A DNA stretch of 64,000 nucleotides. Source: Escherichia phage ime09. Under the pieces are notes generated by a model, which did no database searches, was not told the origin of the DNA, and saw nothing but the letters and a program-made list of their open reading frames with translations. The stretch lies in the sequence record NC_019503.1. One strand, 5' to 3'. Below, in pieces: positions 12,344 to 60,122 of the stretch (position 1 is its first letter; each line of letters opens with the position of its first letter). The position numbers were made by a program, and so were the translations under genes.

Positions 12344-12372
12344 TAGATATATTTATTACATGGTATTTAGAC

Positions 12373-13884
12373 ATGACTGACATTAAAGTACATTTTTATG
12401 ATTTTAGTCACGTGAGAATTGATTGTGAAGAAAGTACATTTCATGAACTCCGTGATTTCTTTAGCTTCGAAGCTGATGGGTATCGTTTTAATCCGAAATA
12501 CAAGTATGGTCACTGGGATGGACGAATCCGTCTATTAGATTATAATCGCCTTCTTCCGTTTGGTTTAGTCGGGCAAATTAAAAAGTTCTGCGATAACTTT
12601 GGCTATAAAGCTTGGATTGACCCGCAAATTAACGAAAAAGAAGAATTATCAAGAAAAGATTTTGATGAATGGCTTTCTAAGTTAGAAATCTATTCAGGAA
12701 ATAAAAGAATTGAACCACACTGGTATCAAAAAGATGCAGTGTTCGAAGGATTAGTTAATCGTCGTAGAATTCTTAATCTTCCAACATCCGCAGGTAAATC
12801 TTTAATTCAAGCTTTGCTTGCACGTTATTATTTGGAAAATTATGAAGGTAAAATTCTTATCATTGTTCCAACAACTGCTTTAACAACTCAGATGGCTGAT
12901 GACTTTGTTGATTATCGTTTATTCAGTCATGCAATGATAAAGAAAATCGGCGGCGGAGCATCAAAAGATGATAAATATAAAAATGATGCACCGGTAATTG
13001 TTGGTACATGGCAAACTGTAGTAAAACAACCAAAAGAATGGTTCTCACAGTTTGGAATGATGATGAATGATGAATGCCATCTTGCCACAGGAAAAAGTAT
13101 TTCATCTATCATATCAGGTTTAAATAACTGCATGTTTAAATTTGGTTTGTCCGGTTCATTGCGTGATGGCAAAGCTAATATCATGCAGTATGTTGGAATG
13201 TTTGGTGAAATATTTAAGCCAGTAACGACTTCTAAATTAATGGAAGATGGACAAGTAACTGAGTTAAAAATTAATAGTATTTTTCTTCGCTATCCCGATG
13301 AGTTCACTACTAAATTAAAGGGAAAAACTTACCAAGAAGAAATAAAAATTATTACTGGGCTCAGTAAAAGAAATAAATGGATCGCTAAATTAGCTATTAA
13401 GCTTGCACAAAAAGATGAAAACGCTTTTGTCATGTTTAAACACGTATCACACGGTAAAGCTATTTTCGATTTAATTAAAAATGAATACGATAAAGTTTAT
13501 TACGTATCAGGGGAAGTTGATACCGAAACACGCAACGTAATGAAAACCCTAGCTGAAAACGGTAAAGGAATAATTATAGTAGCTAGTTATGGTGTATTTT
13601 CTACTGGTATTTCAGTTAAAAATCTGCATCACGTTGTTTTAGCACACGGTGTTAAATCTAAAATTATTGTATTGCAAACAATAGGTCGCGTATTACGTAA
13701 GCATGGTTCCAAAACAATCGCAACGGTCTGGGACCTCATTGACGATTGTGGCGTTAAACCAAAATCTGCTAATACGAAAAAGAAATATGTTCATTTGAAC
13801 TATCTTTTAAAACACGGCATTGATCGTATTCAGCGCTACGCAGATGAAAAATTTAATTACGTAATGAAAACAGTTAATTTATAA
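12373..13884 (+). CDS. uvsW: UvsW recombination/repair helicase
   Basis: 503 aa; helicase motifs (Walker A-like PTSAGKS, DECH box) visible; TATAAATA at 12336-12343. Confidence 0.93.
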   Translation: MTDIKVHFYDFSHVRIDCEESTFHELRDFFSFEADGYRFNPKYKYGHWDGRIRLLDYNRLLPFGLVGQIKKFCDNFGYKAWIDPQINEKEELSRKDFDEWLSKLEIYSGNKRIEPHWYQKDAVFEGLVNRRRILNLPTSAGKSLIQALLARYYLENYEGKILIIVPTTALTTQMADDFVDYRLFSHAMIKKIGGGASKDDKYKNDAPVIVGTWQTVVKQPKEWFSQFGMMMNDECHLATGKSISSIISGLNNCMFKFGLSGSLRDGKANIMQYVGMFGEIFKPVTTSKLMEDGQVTELKINSIFLRYPDEFTTKLKGKTYQEEIKIITGLSKRNKWIAKLAIKLAQKDENAFVMFKHVSHGKAIFDLIKNEYDKVYYVSGEVDTETRNVMKTLAENGKGIIIVASYGVFSTGISVKNLHHVVLAHGVKSKIIVLQTIGRVLRKHGSKTIATVWDLIDDCGVKPKSANTKKKYVHLNYLLKHGIDRIQRYADEKFNYVMKTVNL

Positions 13885-30211: not shown

Positions 30212-30413
30212 TACTTATAATTTCAACATCAGCCCAATGACCGTAACCCGGTAAACGGTCTTCAATAGATAATCCGCCATCATATTTAAGCATTTTAATT
30301 GTCATAATATATGGCTCTAAATGGTCTTCTGTGAGAGGAGAAACGTCAGTCACACGATAAGTAACTTCAACCATTTCCGTACCTAATAATTTCTGAATTA
30401 ATTTCTTAAACAT
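30198..30413 (-). CDS. Hypothetical protein, 71 aa
   Basis: ORF in 30.x cluster. Confidence 0.5.
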   Translation of the reverse strand: MFKKLIQKLLGTEMVEVTYRVTDVSPLTEDHLEPYIMTIKMLKYDGGLSIEDRLPGYGHWADVEIISIENV

Positions 30414-30417
30414 TTTA

Positions 30418-30705
30418 TTAGAACCTCATCTGAAAACCGTGCGATTTAACATTACCGCCGCCAATATCAGAAATATTAATTTCACGCGCAATTGAAGGAT
30501 CAATGTCAATTTCACGATTGAGTTTAGTGATAGCTAAAGTATCGCGGCCATTTACAGTACGGAACTCTAAAGGACATACTACATTAACGTAGTTTTTAAT
30601 CGATTCGCTGGTAGGTTGCAAATGAGCAGGAAGGTCTTTAGGCGCCTTAGAGAAAACCACTTCACAGAAGTTTTTACGAGTATCAAAATAAGTAGTCATA
30701 AACAT
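30418..30705 (-). CDS. Hypothetical protein, 95 aa
   Basis: ATG 30705 with GAGGA 8 nt upstream, preceded by CGAA-loop hairpin. Confidence 0.6.
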   Translation of the reverse strand: MFMTTYFDTRKNFCEVVFSKAPKDLPAHLQPTSESIKNYVNVVCPLEFRTVNGRDTLAITKLNREIDIDPSIAREINISDIGGGNVKSHGFQMRF

Positions 30706-30722
30706 AGTATTTTCCTCAGTAA

Positions 30723-30736
30723 GGGGCCGAAGCCCC
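30723..30736 (-). terminator. Short CGAA/UUCG hairpin in 30.x cluster
   Basis: ggggc cgaa gcccc directly upstream of SD of next gene. Confidence 0.4.
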
Positions 30737-30746
30737 TCATTTTATT

Positions 30747-31112
30747 TTAAATATCAAATTCATTAAGAACTACATCAAAGATCGCTTCAAGATGCTCAGG
30801 TTTAGCTCTGTTACTCAGAATATGACGAATCCAAGTTTTAACCAGAAGCTTGCGATTAACACCATTCCAGCAAGGATGAGTCCCTAAATCGCGTTGACGA
30901 AAATCATCATCCAAAGCAATTTTGAAGTTGGAACCTTCCATTGTGATTGAAACCGTGATGCCATTTTCAAATCGCATATAAACGTAGTTAGGAGTCATAT
31001 ACTGTTCAATTTCGCATACTGATCCATTTTGATGTTTCCAAAGGCAAATAGTATCAATAGAACCTGCAATACCATTAGAAACATATTTACGTTCAAAGTT
31101 AATGTAGTTCAT
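30747..31112 (-). CDS. Hypothetical protein, 121 aa
   Basis: ORF with GGAG SD and early-type promoter upstream. Confidence 0.6.
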   Translation of the reverse strand: MNYINFERKYVSNGIAGSIDTICLWKHQNGSVCEIEQYMTPNYVYMRFENGITVSITMEGSNFKIALDDDFRQRDLGTHPCWNGVNRKLLVKTWIRHILSNRAKPEHLEAIFDVVLNEFDI

Positions 31113-31142
31113 TTTTATTCTCCGAGATGTTTAATTGCGGTA

Positions 31143-31180
31143 CAGGTATATAATATCATATCCTGTACCAAAGTAAACTA
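31143..31180 (-). promoter_or_regulatory. Early-type promoter TTTACT-16-TATTAT flanked by 8 bp inverted repeat
   Basis: -35 plus 31172-31177, -10 plus 31150-31155, TGa upstream of -10. Confidence 0.4.
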
Positions 31181-31182
31181 TT

Positions 31183-31551
31183 TTATGCAACTTTAATCCA
31201 ATTATCTAAATTTAATTCACCTTTGGCTTTCATTTTTTCAATCAAGAGGTCAGCGGTAATACGACCATTTTGATACCACGTAACATCTTCAGAGTAACCA
31301 GTTTCTTTATCTTCATAAGTCTCACAGCGAATTTTACCAAGAATCAAAGTTTTTAATTCGTATGTATCTCCAGTAAAAAAGTTAGTTAACATTATTTTCC
31401 AAGAGAAGTCATCAGAAGGACCTTCAGGAGTCATGCAACCTACAAATTCAAATTGTTCTTTGTATAAGTGCCACTGAAGTTCTTTAGTTTCGATAGCTTT
31501 ATAGCCGTCGTGATCTTTACCTTTGATGTATGAGTTAAGATTGATTTTCAT
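31183..31551 (-). CDS. Hypothetical protein, 122 aa
   Basis: ORF with AAGGAG SD and TTTACA-17-TAGTAT promoter upstream. Confidence 0.6.
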   Translation of the reverse strand: MKINLNSYIKGKDHDGYKAIETKELQWHLYKEQFEFVGCMTPEGPSDDFSWKIMLTNFFTGDTYELKTLILGKIRCETYEDKETGYSEDVTWYQNGRITADLLIEKMKAKGELNLDNWIKVA

Positions 31552-31576
31552 TTTATTCTCCTTTGTTTGTGTAAGA

Positions 31577-31609
31577 TAATACTATCACAAAGGAACCATA
31601 CTGTAAACA
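31577..31609 (-). promoter_or_regulatory. Early-type promoter TTTACA-17-TAGTAT
   Basis: -35 plus 31602-31607, -10 plus 31579-31584, extended TG. Confidence 0.5.
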
Positions 31610-31638
31610 ACTTTGTGCAATCTTTGGAAAATAAAAAA

Positions 31639-31656
31639 GGACTCCCGAAGGAGTCC
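31639..31656 (-). terminator. Intrinsic terminator after the 58 aa basic-protein gene
   Basis: Minus strand ggacucc uucg ggagucc followed by UUUUUUAUUUU. Confidence 0.7.
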
Positions 31657-31661
31657 TCAAC

Positions 31662-31838
31662 TTATGCTTTCTGCTTACCAAAACGAGAAGCATCATCTCG
31701 AAGAACCGCACGTGCTCGGCGCATGATCTTCTCAACAGTTTGATTGATACGAGAGTTCGACCCACGCTTGTAACCAGCGCGTTTAGAATCACCAACTTTC
31801 TTTTCAACTGCTTTCTTTGCTTTAGCTTGTTTTGCCAT
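31662..31838 (-). CDS. Small highly basic protein, 58 aa (possible nucleic-acid binding)
   Basis: ATG at 31838 (ORF track extends to 31880); MAKQAKAKKAVEKK... Lys/Arg rich; followed by strong terminator. Confidence 0.55.
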   Translation of the reverse strand: MAKQAKAKKAVEKKVGDSKRAGYKRGSNSRINQTVEKIMRRARAVLRDDASRFGKQKA

Positions 31839-32032
31839 TATAAATTCTCTTTTAAATGAAAATGCAGGACTTATTGGCATTGCCTGCGAAAGCCCTCAAG
31901 GGGTACTTAGGTTTTGAATATTTACCGACAGGATAACCATAAACCTCGTCAACATTCAAGAGGTACACCGTAAAACAAAGTTCGACGGCTCCTCGTTTTA
32001 ACTTCACACTAAGGCAGTGACTCTCCAATAAA

Positions 32033-35361: not shown

Positions 35362-35548
35362 TCACATAATTTTCTTCAAGCCAATTAATAACATCCAACG
35401 CATTATCAAAAGTGAACCATCTACTTTGTCTTCTGTTTCATAATCAAGAACATCTAAGCCTACTCTTCCATCAACAATAGGCCATAAACAAAATAGATAT
35501 TTCTTTTCTTTTTCAATTTTATCACAAAGTCGATAAATCTTTTCTATG

Positions 35549-35556
<8 letters not shown>
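35362..35556 (-). CDS. Hypothetical protein, 64 aa (cd.5 position)
   Basis: ORF. Confidence 0.5.
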
Positions 35557-48278: not shown

Positions 48279-48932
48279 TTAATACTTACAAGATTTCACA
48301 GTTTCAATAAAAATACTTTTAGCTTTCTGCGAATCAATATTTAAAATTTTTCTATAAGCCTTTAACTTTATAGAATAATTATTCCAGACTAAATTATCAG
48401 TCTGTTCATCATGTTTATCGATTATATTTAAAAACGAATCAAGCAAGATAAACGTCTCAAACGAAATTATATTCGATTGAAGTAGTTTAAAAATATAACT
48501 CGATTGAACTTTTGGATTATACTCAAAGATTTCTTTAAAAGCAGAAACTTCAACTTTTTTACTAAAATAATAAATGTTGCGAATATCTTCTTCAAACTTA
48601 AATTTAATTTGCTTTAAGCGTCCGATATATTCACGATAAAACACAAGTGCATCAGCGTCAGAGATGTCACCAATCCAAGCATCTTGGTTAGCAACCAGAT
48701 TGCTTATAAAGATTAAAGCAAGTTCCTTTAATTTATATTTTTCTGATAACTTCTGGAAAAAATACTTATCCCTTCGCTTTTGATAAGCGGCATCAGACAC
48801 CCGCATGCACCAATTATACTTAATTACATCATACTTTCCATTCATATGTTGTTTTATCATTAAGTATAATTTATAAACTGATTTACCATCAATGTATCTT
48901 TCACCACCAGCAGGCATGCGGAGTTTAATCAT
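48279..48932 (-). CDS. 59: gp59 helicase loader
   Basis: 217 aa as T4 gp59. Confidence 0.93.
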   Translation of the reverse strand: MIKLRMPAGGERYIDGKSVYKLYLMIKQHMNGKYDVIKYNWCMRVSDAAYQKRRDKYFFQKLSEKYKLKELALIFISNLVANQDAWIGDISDADALVFYREYIGRLKQIKFKFEEDIRNIYYFSKKVEVSAFKEIFEYNPKVQSSYIFKLLQSNIISFETFILLDSFLNIIDKHDEQTDNLVWNNYSIKLKAYRKILNIDSQKAKSIFIETVKSCKY

Positions 48933-49267
48933 AGTAGAAAATCTAATGTATTAGTTTTTTCACAACGAACAACAGAAGGACGTAAAAGATTTTCGTCGAT
49001 AGCTTCTGACTGAATTTTTTCAATTATACCCGAAGGAATAAATTTAGCAAATTGAGTTTCAGGAATAGAATTTTCTTCTAAGAATGCTGTTGTAGCTTCA
49101 AGATAACTCATTCCAAACTCTTCTACCATTTTTTCAATAATAAATCCATTTTCTTGGCGATCGAGAAGCTTTGCAATTTCATCTTTTTCTTTCTTAATTG
49201 AAAGTTCTTTTTCTGAAAGACCGGTCTCATCGACCGGACGAATATCATTTAGAGAAAACTGTGTCAT
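48929..49267 (-). CDS. 33: gp33 late transcription co-activator
   Basis: 112 aa from ATG 49267 (ORF track starts at TTG 49276); begins MTQFSLNDI. Confidence 0.88.
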   Translation of the reverse strand: MTQFSLNDIRPVDETGLSEKELSIKKEKDEIAKLLDRQENGFIIEKMVEEFGMSYLEATTAFLEENSIPETQFAKFIPSGIIEKIQSEAIDENLLRPSVVRCEKTNTLDFLL

Positions 49268-49514
49268 AAAGTTCAACTACCTCTTCAGTTTCAGCTTCAA
49301 ACACATCACGGTTATCTTTATGATACAAAGCTAACAGACGATTAAACATCTTACCATCAACGCCAAGTTCATCTTTGGCACGAATTCGAATATCTTTAAT
49401 CAATTCATTATAACCAGAAATTTTCAGTTTATGATCAGATGCTTCTTTAATAAATTTAGCCAAGTCTTCGCCATGAATAGCTTCATCAAATTCAACCATT
49501 TCTTTTTTAGCCAT
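49245..49514 (-). CDS. dsbA: DsbA double-stranded DNA-binding protein
   Basis: 89 aa as T4 DsbA. Confidence 0.88.
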   Translation of the reverse strand: MAKKEMVEFDEAIHGEDLAKFIKEASDHKLKISGYNELIKDIRIRAKDELGVDGKMFNRLLALYHKDNRDVFEAETEEVVELYDTVFSK

Positions 49515-49522
49515 TATTCACC

Positions 49523-50439
49523 TCAAAATTCATTAATGCTATTAGTTAATTTAGAAAGACCCGCTTTTACAAAATATGAATAAATTTTGCCACGCGGTGG
49601 TAATTTATATGAATTATAGTAATTCACAATGTTTGAAGCAATATTATCAGGAATATAATCAAAATCAATTAGAACTAAATTTTCTTTATATCGATTATAT
49701 TCAGATTCAGTGAGAAGCACCTTAGCTTGCTCACGGTCATTAGCAATAGCTTCAACAATAGATGTTTTCATTGAAGGAGTTCGTTCACCTTCAACTCTAG
49801 TAAACCAAAAGTCAGACCGTACTTTAACTGAAGCAACGTTATCCTTTTTGTCACCTTTAAGGATTTTAGTCATACAGTCAATTTCAGCAGAACCGCTTTT
49901 AATTTTAACCCATTTCTTGTGCATCGGTGACCATTGCTTAACATTTGGGTATTTGTGAAGTTGAGTAAAGTCACCATCAGATGAAATGATTAAAATCTTA
50001 TGTCCTTCTAAAGAGAACTTTTTAACAAGAACAGCAATATGGTCATCTGCTTCATACTTATCAATATCCATAACAATGTATGGCATATAAGCTTTCAATT
50101 CATCTATGACTTTATGACTGGATTCAAAATAACCTTCCCAGTCCCAAGTAGATTCTTCTCGTGCTTTTCCACGGTTTTTCTTATAATAATAAGCGAAATC
50201 ACGACGCCAGTATCCAGATTTCGCATTATCAATACACAGTACAATTTTAGTGTATCCAAGAGCTTTTGCTTTTTTGACATTAAACTTAATTGAGTTCAAT
50301 ATCAAATGACGAACCATTGATAAATTAATTTTTCTTTATCTGGAAAGTTTACCAAAGCAGTTGAAAGAGCAATTTGACTAAAGTCAATTAAGCAGATTCC
50401 TTCTTTGTAATCTTCATCCAGCATCATTTCTAAATCCAT
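49523..50439 (-). CDS. rnh: RNase H (FEN-1 family 5'-3' exonuclease), reading frame broken by an apparent 1-nt deletion
   Basis: ATG 50439 with GAGG SD and TTTACT-17-TATAAT promoter opens a 45-codon frame (MDLEMMLDEDYKEG...DKEK) that stops at 50302-50304; the 264 aa remainder (49523-50317) is in another frame; junction is an A5 run (plus T5 at 50329-50333). Confidence 0.8.
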
Positions 50440-50466
50440 ATGAACCTCGTTCAATTAGTGAGATTT

Positions 50467-50499
50467 CTATTATATACCATCCGAATCTTAAAGTAAACA
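50467..50499 (-). promoter_or_regulatory. Early promoter of rnh, TTTACT-17-TATAAT
   Basis: -35 plus 50492-50497, -10 plus 50469-50474. Confidence 0.5.
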
Positions 50500-50501
50500 A
50501 G

Positions 50502-50509
50502 TATAAATA
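50502..50509 (+). promoter_or_regulatory. Late promoter box TATAAATA for gene 34
   Basis: Exact TATAAATA 34 nt upstream of ATG 50544. Confidence 0.55.
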
Positions 50510-50543
50510 CTTATTATTGAAAACACAATAGGAGCCCGGGAGA

Positions 50544-53500
50544 ATGGCCGAGATTAAAAGAAAGTTCAGAGCAGAAGATGGTCTGGACGCAGGTGGCGAT
50601 AAAATAATCAACGTAGCTTTAGCTGATCGTGCCGTAGGAACTGACGGTGTTAACGTTGATTACCTAATTCAAGAAAACACAGTTCAACAATACGATCCAA
50701 CTCGTGGATATTTAAAAGATTTTGTAATCATTTATGATAACCGCTTTTGGGCTGCTATAAATGATATTCCAAAACCGGCAGGAGCTTTTAATAGCGGACG
50801 CTGGAGAGCATTACGTACCGATGCTAACTGGATTACAGTCTCATCTGGTTCATATCAATTAAAATCTGGTGAAGCTATTTCGGTTAACACTGCAGCTGGT
50901 AATGATATTACATTTACTTTACCATCTACTCCAATTGACGGTGATACTATCGTTCTCCAAGACATTGGAGGAAAACCTGGAGTTAACCAAGTTTTAATTG
51001 TAGCTCCAGTGCAAAGTATTGTAAACTTCAGAGGCGAGCAAGTACGTTCAGTACTAATGACTCATCCAAAGTCACAGTTAGTTTTAATTTTTAGTAATCG
51101 TCTGTGGCAAATGTATGTAGCTGATTATAGTAGAGAAGCTGTAGTTGTAACACCAGCGAATACTTATCAAGCACAATCCAACGATTTTATCGTACGTAGA
51201 TTTACTTCTGCTGCACCGATAAATATTAAACTTCCGAGATTTGCTAATCACGGCGATATTATTAATTTCGTCGATTTGGATAAATTAAACCCTCTTTATC
51301 ATACAATTGTTACTACATATGATGAAACGACATCAGTGCAAGAAGATGGAACTCATTCCATTGAAGGCCGTACATCGATTGACGGTTTCTTGATGTATGA
51401 TGATAATGAGAAATTATGGAGATTATTTGACGGGGACAGTAAAGCACGTTTACGTATCATAACAACTAATTCAAACATTCGTCCAAATGAAGAAGTTATG
51501 GTATTTGGTGCGAATAACGGAACAACTCAAACGATTGAGCTTCAGCTTCCAACTAATATTTCTGTTGGTGATACTGTTAAAATTTCCATGAATTACATGA
51601 GAAAAGGACAAACAGTTAAAATCAAAGCTGCCGGTGAAGATAAAATTGCTTCTTCAGTTCAATTGCTGCAATTCCCAAAACGTTCAGAGTATCCACCTGA
51701 AGCTGAATGGGTGACTGTTCAAGAATTAGTTTTTAACGGTGAAACTAATTATGTTCCAGTTTTACAACTTGCTTATATAGAAGATTCTGACGGAAAATAC
51801 TGGGTTGTACAACAAAACGTTCCAACCGTAGAAAGAGTTGATTCTTTAAACGATTCTACTAGAGCAAGATTAGGCGTAATTGCTTTAGCTACACAAGCGC
51901 AAGCTAATGTCGATTTAGAAAATTCTCCACAAAAAGAATTAGCAATTACTCCAGAAACATTAGCTAACCGTACTGCTACAGAAACTCGTAGAGGTATCGC
52001 AAGAATAGCAACCACTGCTCAAGTGAATCAGAACACCACATTCTCTTTTGCTGATGATATTATCATTACACCTAAAAAGCTGAATGAAAGAACTGCTACA
52101 GAAACTCGTAGAGGTGTTGCTGAAATTGCTACGCAACAGGAAACTAATGCAGGTACTGATGATACTACAATCATCACTCCTAAAAAGCTTCAAGCTCGAC
52201 AAGGTTCTGAATCATTATCTGGTATTGTAACCTTTGTATCTACTGCAGGAGCTACTCCAGCTTCTAGTCGTGAATTAAATGGTACAAACGTTTATAATAA
52301 AAACACTAATAATTTAGTTGTTTCGCCTAAAGCTCTGGATCAGTATAAAGCTACTCCAACACAACAAGGTGCAGTAATTTTAGCAGTTGAAAGTGAAGTA
52401 ATTGCTGGACAGAGCCAAGAAGGATGGGCAAATGCGGTTGTAACGCCAGAAACGTTACATAAAAAGACATCAACTGATGGAAGAATTGGTTTAATTGAAA
52501 TTGCTACGCAAAGTGAAGTTAATACAGGAACTGATTATACTCGTGCAGTCACTCCTAAAACTTTAAATGACCGTAAAGCAACTGAAAGTTTAAGTGGTAT
52601 AGCTGAAATTGCTACACAAGTTGAATTCGACGCAGGCGTCGACGATACTCGTATCTCTACACCATTAAAAATTAAAACTAGATTTGATAGTACTGATCGT
52701 ACTTCTGTTGTTGCTCTATCTGGATTAGTTGAATCAGGAACTCTCTGGGACCATTATACCCTTAATATTCTTGAAGCAAATGAGACACAGCGTGGTACAC
52801 TTCGTGTAGCTACACAGGTTGAAGCTGCTGCAGGAACATTAGATAATGTTTTAATAACTCCTAAAAAGCTTTTAGGTACTAAATCTACTGAAGCACAGGA
52901 AGGCGTTATTAAAGTTGCAACTCAGTCTGAAACTGTGACTGGAACGTCAGCAAATACTGCTGTATCTCCAAAAAATTTAAAATGGATTGTGCAGAGTGAA
53001 CCTACTTGGGCAGCTACTACTGCGATAAGAGGCTTTGTTAAAACTTCATCCGGTTCAATTACATTCGTTGGTAATGATACAGTTGGTTCAACACAGTCGT
53101 TAGAATTATACGAGAAAAATAGCTATGCAGTATCACCATATGAATTAAACCGTGTATTAGCAAATTATTTGCCATTAAAAGCAAAAGCTGCTGATACAAA
53201 TTTATTGGATGGTCTAGATTCATCTCAGTTCATTCGTAGGGATATTGCACAGACAGTTAATGGTTCACTAACCTTAACCCAACAAACGAATCTGAGTGCC
53301 CCTCTTGTATCATCTAGTACTGCTACGTTTGGTGGATCAGTTTCGGCAAACAGCACATTAACTATTTCTAATACTGGAACGGCAACTCGTCTGATTTTTG
53401 AGAAAGGACCTCAAACTGGAACTAACCCAGTACAGACGATGACTATCAGAGTTTGGGGAAATCAGTACGGTGGCGGTTCAGATACAACACGTTCTACTGT

Positions 53501-54413
53501 ATTTGAAGTTGGTGATGAAACGTCTAATCACTTTTATTCTCAACGTAATAAAGCTGGGAATATAACGTTTAGTATCAATGGTACTGTAATGCCAATAAAT
53601 GTTAATGCTTCGGGTTCTTTGAATGCGAACGGCGTTGCAACATTTGGTAGTTCAGTTACTGCTAATGGTGAATTCATCAGCAAGTCTGCAAATGCTTTCA
53701 GAGCAATAAATGGCGACTATGGATTCTTTATTCGCAATGATGCTGCTAACACCTATTTTATGCTTACTGCATCGGGTGATCAGACTGGCGGATTTAATGG
53801 ATTACGTCCTTTAGCTATTAATAATGCATCCGGTCAAGTAACGATTGGTGAAAGCTTAATCATTGCCAAAGGTGCTACTATAAATTCAGGTGGTTTAACT
53901 GTTAACTCGAGAATTCGTTCTCAGGGTACTAAAACATCTGACTTATATACCCGTGCGCCGACATCTGATACTGTAGGATTCTGGTCAATTGACATTAATG
54001 ATTCAGCCACTTATAATCAGTTCCCAGGTTATTTTAAAATGGTTGAAAAAACTAATGAAGTGACTGGACTTCCATACTTAGAACGTGGCGAAGAAGTTAA
54101 ATCTCCTGGTACATTGACTCAGTTTGGTAATACACTTGATTCGCTTTACCAAGATTGGATTACTTATCCAACGACTCCAGAAGCACGTACCACTCGCTGG
54201 ACCCGTACATGGCAGAAAACCAAAAACTCTTGGTCGAGTTTTGTTCAGGTATTTGATGGAGGTAACCCTCCTCAGCCGTCTGATATCGGTGCTTTACCAT
54301 CTGATAATGCTACAATGGGGAATCTTACTATTCGTGATTTCTTACGAATTGGCAATGTTCGCATTATTCCTGACCCAGTGAATAAATCTGTTAAATTTGA
54401 ATGGATTGAATAA
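50544..54413 (+). CDS. 34: Long tail fiber proximal subunit gp34
   Basis: 1289 aa as T4 gp34; internal repeated motifs; TATAAATA at 50502-50509. Confidence 0.95.
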   Translation: MAEIKRKFRAEDGLDAGGDKIINVALADRAVGTDGVNVDYLIQENTVQQYDPTRGYLKDFVIIYDNRFWAAINDIPKPAGAFNSGRWRALRTDANWITVSSGSYQLKSGEAISVNTAAGNDITFTLPSTPIDGDTIVLQDIGGKPGVNQVLIVAPVQSIVNFRGEQVRSVLMTHPKSQLVLIFSNRLWQMYVADYSREAVVVTPANTYQAQSNDFIVRRFTSAAPINIKLPRFANHGDIINFVDLDKLNPLYHTIVTTYDETTSVQEDGTHSIEGRTSIDGFLMYDDNEKLWRLFDGDSKARLRIITTNSNIRPNEEVMVFGANNGTTQTIELQLPTNISVGDTVKISMNYMRKGQTVKIKAAGEDKIASSVQLLQFPKRSEYPPEAEWVTVQELVFNGETNYVPVLQLAYIEDSDGKYWVVQQNVPTVERVDSLNDSTRARLGVIALATQAQANVDLENSPQKELAITPETLANRTATETRRGIARIATTAQVNQNTTFSFADDIIITPKKLNERTATETRRGVAEIATQQETNAGTDDTTIITPKKLQARQGSESLSGIVTFVSTAGATPASSRELNGTNVYNKNTNNLVVSPKALDQYKATPTQQGAVILAVESEVIAGQSQEGWANAVVTPETLHKKTSTDGRIGLIEIATQSEVNTGTDYTRAVTPKTLNDRKATESLSGIAEIATQVEFDAGVDDTRISTPLKIKTRFDSTDRTSVVALSGLVESGTLWDHYTLNILEANETQRGTLRVATQVEAAAGTLDNVLITPKKLLGTKSTEAQEGVIKVATQSETVTGTSANTAVSPKNLKWIVQSEPTWAATTAIRGFVKTSSGSITFVGNDTVGSTQSLELYEKNSYAVSPYELNRVLANYLPLKAKAADTNLLDGLDSSQFIRRDIAQTVNGSLTLTQQTNLSAPLVSSSTATFGGSVSANSTLTISNTGTATRLIFEKGPQTGTNPVQTMTIRVWGNQYGGGSDTTRSTVFEVGDETSNHFYSQRNKAGNITFSINGTVMPINVNASGSLNANGVATFGSSVTANGEFISKSANAFRAINGDYGFFIRNDAANTYFMLTASGDQTGGFNGLRPLAINNASGQVTIGESLIIAKGATINSGGLTVNSRIRSQGTKTSDLYTRAPTSDTVGFWSIDINDSATYNQFPGYFKMVEKTNEVTGLPYLERGEEVKSPGTLTQFGNTLDSLYQDWITYPTTPEARTTRWTRTWQKTKNSWSSFVQVFDGGNPPQPSDIGALPSDNATMGNLTIRDFLRIGNVRIIPDPVNKSVKFEWIE

Positions 54414-56273: not shown

Positions 56274-59200
56274 ATGGCTACTTTAAAACAAATACAATTT
56301 AAAAGAAGCAAAACCGCAGGTGCACGTCCTGCTGCTTCAGTATTAGCCGAAGGTGAATTGGCTATAAACTTAAAAGATAGAACAATTTTTACTAAAGATG
56401 ATTCGGGAAATATCATTGATCTAGGTATTGCTAAAGGCGGTCAAATTGATGGAAATGTGACTATCAATGGTCTTTTAAGATTAAATGGGGATTATACACA
56501 AACTGGTGGAATGACCGTAAATGGACCTATTGGTTCTACTGAAGGCGTATCCGCCTTAGTTTTTAGATCTATGCGAGGGTCATTTTACGCAAGAGCAACA
56601 AATGATACTTCCAATGCCCATCTTTGGTTTGAAAATACAGATGGATCGGAGAGAGGTGTTTTATATTCAAAACCACAGTCTGAAAATGAAGGCGTAATCA
56701 CAATGCGTGTTCGTCAAGGAACCGCAGCAGGGGCTCAAAATTCAGAATTTCATTTCATTTCTACTGATGGTGGTATTTTCCAGGCACGCAAGTTAACTGC
56801 TTTAACTTCTATTAGTACACCAACTATTAGTGTTAATTTAATTAATCATGATTCTAAAGCCTTTGGACAATACGATTCACAATCATTGGTTCAGTATGTT
56901 TATCCTGGAACCGGTGAAACTAACGGAGTAAACTATCTTCGTAAAGTTCGTGCTAAATCTGGCGGCACTATGTGGCATGAAATCTGTACAGCTCAGACTG
57001 GACAAGCTGATGAAATGTCATGGTGGACTGGTAATACTCCTCAATCTAAACAATATGGTATTCGTAATGATGGCCGAATAGCTGGCCGTAATAGCCTTGC
57101 ATTAGGTACATTCACTACGGGTTTCCCGTCTAGTGATTATGGAAATACTGGGGTAATGGGTGATAAGTATCTTGTTCTCGGTGACACTGTAACTGGTCTG
57201 AAATATATTAAACAAGGTGTTTATGATTTAGTTGGTGGAGGTTATTCCGTTGCATCTATTACGCCTGATAGTTTCCGTAGTACTCGTAAAGGTATATTTG
57301 GTCGCTCAGAAGATCAAGGTACAACATGGACTATGCCTGGAACGAATGTTGCATTTTTATCAGTTCAAACACAGGCTGATGAAAACGCTGCTGGAGACGG
57401 CCAGACACATATTGGCTATAACTCAGGCGGAAAAATGAACCACTATTTCCGTGGTAAAGGCAAAACTAATATTAATACTCAAGAAGGCATGGAAGTTAAC
57501 CCGGGTATTCTTAAAATAGTAACCGGTGCAAATAATGTAATGTTTTATGCTGATGGCGGTATTACATCCACTAAGCAGCTTTCAATATATAATGGTGTAT
57601 ATTTAGCAGCTAATAATTCTACTGCTGGGCTAACATTCGCTCCAACTACTACAATTGACGGCACTAAGCAAATTTTGTGGGAAGGTGGTAAGCGTGCTGG
57701 ACAGAATAAAAGCTATGTAACTGTTAAAGCGTGGGGTAATTCATTTAACGCATCTGGCGATCGTAATCGTGAAACGGTTTTTGAAGTAGCTGACGGACAA
57801 GGTTATTATTTTTATGCGCAGCGTGTAGCTCCTGCATCAGGTTCAACAACTGGAGTAATTCAATTTAGAATTGCTGGAGCATTATTAACCGGTGGGGGTA
57901 TTACATCATCAGGTTCTATTGTTACTGAGTCAAGTTTAGTTGCAAATAATGGATTGTCTGTAAATGGACAAGCTAAATTTGGTGGAACAGCAGATGCATT
58001 AAGAATTTGGAATGCTGAATACGGTGCTATTTTCCGCCGTTCGGAAACTAACTTTTATATTATTCCAACTTTACAAAATGCCGGAGAATCGGGCGGTATA
58101 AGTAATTTACGCCCATTTACCATCAATCTCGCAAATGGTAGTGTTATGATGGGCAATCATACACAAGCCGGAAAAAATTTGCTTACTATTGATAACGTAT
58201 CAAAATTCGTTCAAACCGATGTTAGACTTCGAGTTAATATGGATTCTGACGCTATTGTGGTAAATGCTTCATCTCAAGCTGCATCTAACTTTATTCAAGG
58301 ACGTAAGGCTGATGTTACAAAATGGTATTTAGGTATTGGCGATGGCGGAAACGTCGTTCGTATGCATAATTACACCTACTCTCACGGTATTGCATTAAAC
58401 TCTGATACTGTCGATATTACTAAGCCTCTTAAAATTAATGATATTCGAATTGGTACAGATGGTAACATCACAGGTGGTACTGGTAATTTTGCTAACTTAA
58501 ATACAACGTTAAATCGTAAAACCAACGTGGGCGGTTGGGCTGGTAGTTCTGTTGACGGATGGTATAAATTTGCTACGGTAACAATTCCTCAGGGTACTGG
58601 TACAGTGACTTTTAAGATTTCCGGCGGCGCTGGTTTTAATTTTAAAAGCTATAGCCAAGCTTCTGTTGCAGAAATAGTTCTTCGCACGGGTAATAATAAT
58701 CCTAAAGGCATAAATGCTGTACTGTGGAATAGGTCAGACCTGAGTTTTAATCAGATAGCTACTATGAATACATCTGGCGATACTTATGATGTATACGTGT
58801 TCTGTGCCGGTTATACAAATGCATTAGTGGTTGAATATTCCTGTAGTGAAAACTCTTCGGTAACCGTAGTCGGTCTTAACGGAGGCATTCAGCCAGTTGT
58901 TGATGCATTGCCTGAGGGACATGTTGTAGGTAAAACAGTTCGTCTGTTAAATAATATTGGCGGAACTTTCGCAGCTGGAGAATCTAACATTGTTACTCGC
59001 GGTGAATACGTTACTGATAATCAAAAAGGCATGCGTATTAAATCTAACGGTAATAATATCGGTTCTAACGCAGCTTTAATTAGAAATGATGGCGGAAGTT
59101 TTTATATTTTAGCTACAGATAAAAATACGGAAGAAAAACCCGATGCAGCTAATGGTGATTGGAATGGATTAAGACCTTTCTCGATTAATATGGCTGATGG

Positions 59201-60122
59201 TCGCGTTGGTATGAACCACGGGTTAAATATTACTGGCGGTGGTCTGAACGTGGCGGGTGGCCTTAATGTTACCAGTGGTAATACTAGTTTAGGTAATATC
59301 TCATCTCGTGTGGTTGCAGGTTGGCGTGGTGCCGCAGGTTGGGGAGATACCTCAGATGCCATGAAATCCAAAATTACCTTTATGGCAGACCATGGTGATT
59401 TATCTAATTCAGGTAGTTATTATCCTATTGTCGGTGCATACAGTAACTATGGTTCAGCGGGTTATCGTCAAACCTTTGAGTTCGGATGGGTCGGTTCCGG
59501 CACTACAGCGGGTTGGCGCGATGGTATTATTCGTATTCGCGGAGATAATGCTAATGACCAGCAAGCAAGATGGCGCTTTACAATGGACGGTACTTTAGAT
59601 TGCCCTGGTAAAGTACTGCTACCACAAACAGGTGCCTTTGGTGTCAATACATCAAATGGTCTCGGTGGAAATAGTATAACATTTGGTGATAACGATACTG
59701 GTATTAAGCAAAATGGTGATGGATTATTAGACATATATGCGAACAGCGTACAAGTATTCCGTTTCCAAAACGGTGATTTGTACTCATACAAAAATATAAA
59801 CGCTCCAAACGTTTATATTCGTTCTGATATTCGTTTAAAATCCAACTTTAAACCTATCGAAAATGCACTTGATAAAGTTGAAAAACTTAACGGTGTCATT
59901 TATGATAAAGCTGAATACATCGGTGGAGAGGCAATTGAAACTGAAGCGGGTATTGTGGCTCAAACGCTGCAAGACGTTTTACCAGAAGCTGTCCGTGAAA
60001 CAGAAGACAGCAAGGGTAATAAAATACTCACTGTTTCTTCTCAAGCCCAGATTGCTCTTCTAGTTGAAGCTGTGAAAACACTTTCTTCTCGTGTAAAAGA
60101 ACTTGAATCTAAACTTATGTAA
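56274..60122 (+). CDS. 37: Long tail fiber distal subunit gp37 (T2-type, with C-terminal intramolecular chaperone domain)
   Basis: 1282 aa; C-terminal about 100 aa begin with SDIRLK motif typical of self-cleaving intramolecular chaperone (peptidase S74-like) domains. Confidence 0.92.

Follow-up and report, generated by a model that had tools for sequence, protein, structure and literature searches.

The RNase H gene of Escherichia phage ime09 is split in the sequence record by one missing base in an A6 tract

The window analyzed here, by which we mean the whole stretch of 64,000 nt from Escherichia phage ime09 (sequence record NC_019503.1), classes by its sequence as part of a Tequatrovirus (T4-like) genome, and its closest GenBank relatives, at 98 to 99% identity, are CrRp10, IsaacDaniel, ECP2301, ESh26, and KRT47. 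The gene for RNase H (rnh) is flanked by gene 34 and dsbA, an arrangement shared by all annotated relatives (Table 1). A sequence-only reading of the locus had described a TTTACT-17-TATAAT promoter, a GAGG ribosome-binding site, an ATG at 50439, and a stop after 45 codons, and all of these coordinates are correct when the minus strand is read. The promoter-like hexamers are kept in five aligned relatives, with a spacer that is 2 nt shorter in two; 2-nt deletions in the spacer occur in Lv5cm and SsoM_113 (alignment columns 25–29, corresponding to the promoter interval of the window) and would give a spacing of 15 or a shifted −10 element.

Table 1. Features of the rnh locus, with the second disrupted reading frame of the window (window positions).
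Feature	Position	Strand	Basis or remark
dsbA, downstream neighbor	49245..49514	−	ORF; annotated dsbA in relatives; PF11126 in neighbors
rnh C-terminal ORF (MVRHLILNS...INEF), 264 codons + stop, residues 42–305	49523..50317	−	ORF list; −1 frame
Predicted 13–14 bp mRNA hairpin around the premature TGA, rnh codons ~44–56	50273..50306	−	RNA fold
rnh N-terminal fragment, 45 codons, TGA 50304–50302	50302..50439	−	Translation
A5 tract (plus-strand T5), 1-nt deficit	50329..50333	−	nt 107–112 of the 918-nt gene; codons 36–38
GAGG Shine-Dalgarno element, 5-nt spacer before ATG 50439	50445..50448	−	Direct reading; invariant in alignment
TTTACT-17-TATAAT, putative sigma-70/T4-early-like promoter upstream of rnh	50469..50497	−	10/12 in consensus scan
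Gene 34, long tail fibre proximal subunit, divergent upstream neighbor	50544..54413	+	1289-aa ORF; relatives' annotations
66-aa pseT.2-like hypothetical ORF with deletion at ~35413	35362–35556	−	TT -> T; 64-aa product

As given, the sequence contains no continuous rnh ORF of ~305 codons; the gene is represented by 45 and 264 codons in different frames. The 45-codon frame consists of MDLEMMLDEDYKEGICLIDFSQIALSTALVNFPDKEK, the out-of-frame residues LIYQWFVI (8 codons), and a TGA. Its codons 1–37 are those of RNase H, D19 included, and residues 1–37 are identical to those of T4 RNase H (1TFR); by itself, the 45-aa fragment gave no Pfam match. The ORF list and the alignment agree with the earlier placement of the remaining 264 codons, from 50317, in another frame and of the junction at the A5 run. 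Codons for residues 38–41 (INLS) precede this ORF in the same frame at 50329–50318, and the frame is closed just upstream of the A5 run by a TAA at 50338–50336, so that a −1 shift joining the two parts is confined to the interval from this TAA to the TGA at 50304. The 264-aa ORF matches both PF02739 (5'-3' exonuclease N) and PF09293 (T4 RNase H C) and shows 100% identity with CrRp10 RNase H across 269 aa.

The break between the two frames amounts to one base. A tblastn search with the relatives' 305-aa protein returned two HSPs in different frames with a break at 50326–50332, and a 250-nt alignment contained a single gap column, inside the A run. A comparison of run length with related phages, which the sequence-only reading had proposed, gave A6 in all five aligned relatives (5/5) and A5 in the window. 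Addition of one A yields a continuous protein of 305 aa, the anticipated length of T4 RNase H, that is identical to the latter (PDB 1TFR) at 304 of 305 positions (E = 1.6e-205), T60A being the sole difference, and 100% identical to the RNase H of CrRp10, IsaacDaniel, ESh26, Lv5cm, and UoN_LDJ77. Homology to T4 RNase H runs over its full length, the two fragments together covering residues 1–37 and 38/42–305. Since the repaired protein matches both the relatives and 1TFR, rnh shows no other decay. The alignment, the repaired protein, and the comparison with 1TFR thus bear out the view that rnh is cut by a 1-nt deletion in a homopolymer. The split is truly present in the recorded sequence and is no chance pattern, and the locus, judged from its predicted protein, is a T4-type rnh (RNase H, a FEN-1-family 5' nuclease) that is wild type save for one missing base. 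Compared with T4 RNase H (rnh; PDB 1TFR/2IHN), it has the same Pfam pair and the same position, and its promoter and Shine-Dalgarno layout is that of the relatives; in contrast, the window gene lacks one base of the A6 at nt 107–112. The T4 "das" suppressors may map to rnh.

The position of the break matters for function. In T4 RNase H, the site I metal has four Asp ligands (D19, D71, D132, and D155), and Asn at any of these positions abolishes nuclease activity (PMC3012046). The split separates D19, in the 45-aa fragment, from the other three, in the 264-aa ORF, so that, in contrast to the T4 gene, no single ORF of the window holds all four. The active-site acidic residue that the sequence-only reading had placed in the lost N-terminus is therefore identified as D19, a site I metal ligand (PMC3012046). 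The N-terminal peptide of T4 RNase H also carries a PIP-type motif that binds the gp45 clamp (PMC3012046). With D19 and the PIP peptide both on the 45-aa fragment, a product reinitiated at Met42 would, as predicted from the sequence, be catalytically dead and clamp-blind.

These properties bear directly on the possibility that termination at the premature TGA is followed by reinitiation at Met42, giving a 264-aa protein with a useful noncatalytic or altered function. The geometry permits such coupling, as the ATG at 50317 lies 13 nt before the TGA and overlaps the end of the short ORF, and the 264-aa ORF keeps, besides both Pfam domains, the C-terminal gp32-interacting domain (PMC3012046). However, this ATG has no Shine-Dalgarno element, the upstream sequence being AAAAATTAATTTATCA, and the product would be without D19, where a D to N change abolishes activity, without the gp45-clamp PIP peptide, and without part of the alpha/beta core of the N-domain (PMC3012046). 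The short form is, moreover, encoded by no relative, among the annotated relatives and 10 sampled neighborhoods. Reinitiation to a useful product is, in our estimate, extremely improbable.

A second route around the stop would be recoding. If tRNA-Lys slips back by one base on AAA (Lys37), the wild-type protein results exactly, and −1 slippage at any point from the TAA at 50338–50336 to the TGA at 50304–50302 leads to a wild-type or near-wild-type one. Together with the slippage-prone behavior of tRNA-Lys on A-runs in E. coli, this is consistent with a reading in which A5 is a maintained OFF or low-rnh state that tunes nuclease dosage, whether through −1 ribosomal frameshifting, transcriptional slippage, or reversible toggling between A5 and A6. 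The locus resembles dnaX-type programmed −1 frameshifting in that both the frame and the wild-type sequence would be recovered by −1 slippage at a Lys AAA codon, but the other elements of such a system are missing. No X XXY YYZ slippery heptamer is present in the 0 frame at A5; in either of the candidates, A GAA AAA and A AAA UUA, only tRNA-Lys can re-pair, and re-pairing in the −1 frame fails for P-site GAA (against AGA) and for A-site UUA (against AUU). No Shine-Dalgarno-like stimulator was found upstream of A5. Downstream, the stable hairpin predicted by folding of 50345–50250 (96 nt; MFE −20.6 kcal/mol, z = −4.08) would favor recoding, yet it begins ~22 nt after the A tract, as compared with 5–9 nt for a stimulator, and its sequence is identical in all aligned A6 relatives; since it is unchanged in these phages, it is no frameshift-specific device. 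Efficient slippage of RNA polymerase usually needs 8–9 residues, and A5 is well below this length. Conservation, the remaining mark of a dnaX-type signal, is also lacking, as a two-frame arrangement of rnh was not found among relatives (0/498 GenBank records) and A5 is neither conserved nor monophyletic. We regard programmed recoding or a phase-variable switch as highly improbable. Low-level, unprogrammed leakiness at A5 would be the most that could be expected, and the split is not a programmed feature, whichever its origin.

To place A5 among relatives, the 82-nt context of the tract was compared with 498 GenBank Tequatrovirus records, none of which contained a perfect match (0/498); the best GenBank matches all span 83 nt, that is, A6. 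The A5 string had no match in IMG/VR, GTDB genomes, or JGI metagenomes, and the A6 string is present in IMG/VR. The tract is A6 in 24 retrieved stretches representing ~20 different phages, and A5 was seen in four Logan contigs only. Likewise, the 45-aa frameshift peptide was found elsewhere only in four contigs of one project (ERR4622920-23). Within the assembly collection, ~3,181 blocks contain a DsbA protein identical to that of the window, with an intact 305-aa rnh next to it in 10 of 10 sampled neighborhoods. Used as strain markers, the exact gp34 and the exact 64-aa ORF (Table 1) gave no match in other assemblies.

The Logan assemblies of ERR4622920-23 contain the exact 264-aa and 45-aa products, and their rnh differs from that of the window by 20 substitutions, all of which are silent. 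Read at face value, they would be independent confirmation of the A5 allele, or a shared split gene under purifying selection. This interpretation was rejected because the contigs represent one phage, because their rnh is nearer to A6 phages, and because the runs shorten most 6-mers. No substitutions (0) separate the four contigs from one another. Differences in rnh number 8 between Logan and UoN_LDJ77 (A6), 10 between the window and CrRp10 (A6), and 20 between the window and Logan; the Logan rnh is thus less distant from A6 phages than from that of the window, which makes the A5 calls polyphyletic. Silent-only divergence, for its part, is the norm for rnh. Seven of 10 observations of other 6-mer tracts in the Logan contigs were shortened, inconsistently between runs: with the contigs aligned to window 48535–53350, shortening affected the A6 at 50275 in 2/4 runs, the T6 at 48762 in 1/2, the T6 at 52975 in 1/1, and the A6 of gene 33 (49129–49134) in 3/3. 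Gene 33 encodes an essential T4 late-transcription factor, so no viable phage could truly carry the shortened tract, and it was this impossible frameshift that exposed the Logan error. Given the frequency of 7/10 elsewhere, four shortened calls of four at rnh have P ~0.24 under error alone. The Logan A5 calls confirm no real allele; rather, A5 at the rnh tract demonstrably arises as an artefact, and artefactual A5 is at least as frequent there as credibly real A5. No paper citing ERR4622920-23 was found in the literature. In general terms, mass re-assemblies such as Logan can repeat one systematic homopolymer error across runs and thereby mimic independent confirmation.

The reliability of the window itself was assessed by an indel census at base level, with the full-length relatives CrRp10 and ECP2301 as references, and by a split-gene scan with all reading frames of at least 60 aa from these two. 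Only two frame disruptions were detected in 64 kb, in rnh at 50333 and in the ORF at 35413, and ~100 genes are intact. Homopolymer runs of length 4/5/6/7 number 773/322/61/4 in the window, 808/332/58/2 in CrRp10, and 772/334/58/5 in ECP2301. The rnh tract is the only six-mer tract of the window that is shortened relative to both full-length relatives; at an intergenic site, 32758, T6 versus T5 is a natural polymorphism common to phages REP1 and A6-6. The census, the scan, and the homopolymer spectrum together reject an assembly full of homopolymer errors. The window thus shares with the Logan undercalls the same A5 call at rnh, a −1 change in a 6-mer, but whereas the Logan contigs shorten 7/10 other 6-mers, the window shortens one of ~62 six-mer tracts. 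As would be expected of an artefact, the change at rnh is a −1 confined to a homopolymer in an otherwise intact gene; miscalls at other tracts, which an artefact might also bring, were not found in the window by the census or the spectrum against the two relatives.

The second disruption, at 35413, changes only the last 18 residues of a hypothetical protein. It is private to the window: among the matches listed of 423 GenBank records, all span 102 nt as compared with 101 in the window, and the exact 64-aa product is not on record elsewhere.

Larger differences from the two full-length relatives were observed in three further places. Window ~30245–31980 has no nucleotide alignment of at least 1 kb to ECP2301 (30245–31980) or to CrRp10 (30245–31534); it corresponds to the gene 30.x/rIII neighborhood, with several small minus-strand ORFs (71–122 aa), and is probably a hypervariable accessory-gene block. 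In CrRp10, an annotated homing-endonuclease gene (12508–13125, within an insert at 12495–13131) separates inh from the helicase gene; the window (~12359–12379) and ECP2301 lack it. Finally, distal tail-fibre segments (gene 37) at window 56462–56856 and 58114–59637 show 73% identity or no alignment to both relatives; divergence of the gene 37 region is the usual host-range mosaicism.

A loss of one base from an A6 tract has a known biological source. The 2025 preprint of Gomez, Barrick & Waters describes A6 tracts as replication-slippage hot spots in T-even phages: simple sequence repeats (SSRs) of at least 6 bases in T2/T4 show a ±1 change in ~3e-4 reads on average (2.9e-4 for T2), and an A6 in T4 rIIA reverts ~10,000x faster than a point mutation (10.1101/2025.10.21.683753). 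Among the SSRs tabulated for T2, T4, and T6 is the rnh tract itself (coding nt 107–112 of 918), and in the supplement rows available, deep Illumina sequencing of these phages recorded 0 mutant reads at the tract in 1,242–2,009 (10.1101/2025.10.21.683753). As far as those rows go, a real A6 to A5 event would be mechanistically ordinary, but the rnh tract is not unusually hot.

The tract belongs to a class that has been proposed as phage contingency loci (10.1101/2025.10.21.683753), and a real A5 might accordingly be pictured as the OFF position of a reversible rnh ON/OFF slippage switch for a replication nuclease, with host Pol I, and rare tRNA-Lys −1 slippage that would regenerate the wild-type enzyme, buffering its OFF state. 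Like the proposed T-even contingency loci (rIIA A6, agt A-tracts), rnh has a coding single-base tract that reaches 6 bases (A6 in all relatives), with a −1 change in it, and if A5 is real, the mechanism of origin would be the same. In contrast to those loci, rnh has no mutant reads in the supplement rows available and no credible second natural carrier in the collections searched, and its OFF state is not known to bring a benefit. Recurrent OFF alleles in independent isolates, another mark of a contingency locus, were not found, the other A5 calls coming only from the error-laden Logan runs. We consider a contingency switch at rnh very unlikely.

Two origins of the missing base are left to be weighed. 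With moderate confidence, we consider it most likely that a homopolymer undercall remained in the assembly, so that the DNA itself would contain the base that the data lack; the phage would then make a normal 305-aa RNase H from its early-type promoter and GAGG site. This reading is favored because a −1 change in a 6-mer is the commonest type of sequencing error, because the repaired protein is identical to the RNase H of five phages with no secondary decay, because no credible natural carrier appeared in 498 GenBank records or the other collections searched, and because error demonstrably generated A5 in the Logan runs. The absence of mutant reads at the tract in T2/T4/T6, as far as the supplement rows extend, argues further for a low mutational supply, and since rnh loss is costly, leaving the phage dependent on host Pol I (PMC3012046), fixation would need drift. 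The second private 1-nt deletion, at 35413, adds to the case for an artefact, but it also tells against it, since the change is TT to T without a long homopolymer and looks more like real variation. Also against an artefact, the window is not generally error-prone, having a homopolymer spectrum like that of its relatives, one shortened six-mer, and two disrupted genes, and a high-coverage Illumina consensus almost never miscalls A6.

The alternative, to which we would give an appreciable but less than even chance, is a genuine A6 to A5 mutation of the Streisinger slippage type that was fixed in the isolate, for example during plaque purification, and left rnh null or severely hypomorphic. Under this reading, the 5'-3' exonuclease of host DNA polymerase I would remove Okazaki primers and allow the phage to survive, and rare −1 slippage of tRNA-Lys on AAA-A would supply traces of wild-type enzyme, consistent with the exact wild-type protein obtained when the frame slips by −1 at Lys37. 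Elsewhere in the window, the six- and seven-mer tracts are clean and ~100 genes intact, as a real mutation would have it, and the private, non-homopolymer deletion at 35413 suggests a lineage that carries lesions in dispensable genes. Phages that are rnh− are viable, the 5'-3' exonuclease of E. coli Pol I substituting for the lost enzyme; such phages need host Pol I, and the gene is dispensable where the host is polA+ (PMC3012046). No benefit of rnh loss is documented in the available part of that source. Since A6 tracts are slippage hot spots in T-even phages (SSRs of at least 6 bases slip in ~3e-4 reads, and this very tract is catalogued in the tables available from 10.1101/2025.10.21.683753) and a polA+ host makes rnh dispensable, it is entirely feasible that the allele is real. 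Against it stand the lack of a credible second example in 498 GenBank records or thousands of assemblies, the restriction of other A5 calls to error-laden runs, the 0 mutant reads in the T2/T4/T6 rows available, and the fitness cost of rnh loss; in addition, with no further decay in the gene, the mutation would have to be very recent.

Of the three explanations that the sequence-only reading had offered, an inactivating frameshift and a sequencing error are thus retained, and slippage or reinitiation found no support. Both main readings, an undercall and a slippage null allele, are already-known phenomena, and no new recoding mechanism is involved. For annotation, rnh of this phage calls for a frameshift flag or a check against reads, and neither two genes nor recoding should be recorded for it. 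Should the deletion be real, Escherichia phage ime09 would be a natural rnh-null T4-like phage in which host Pol I is needed for Okazaki-primer removal, a handy but unsurprising strain.
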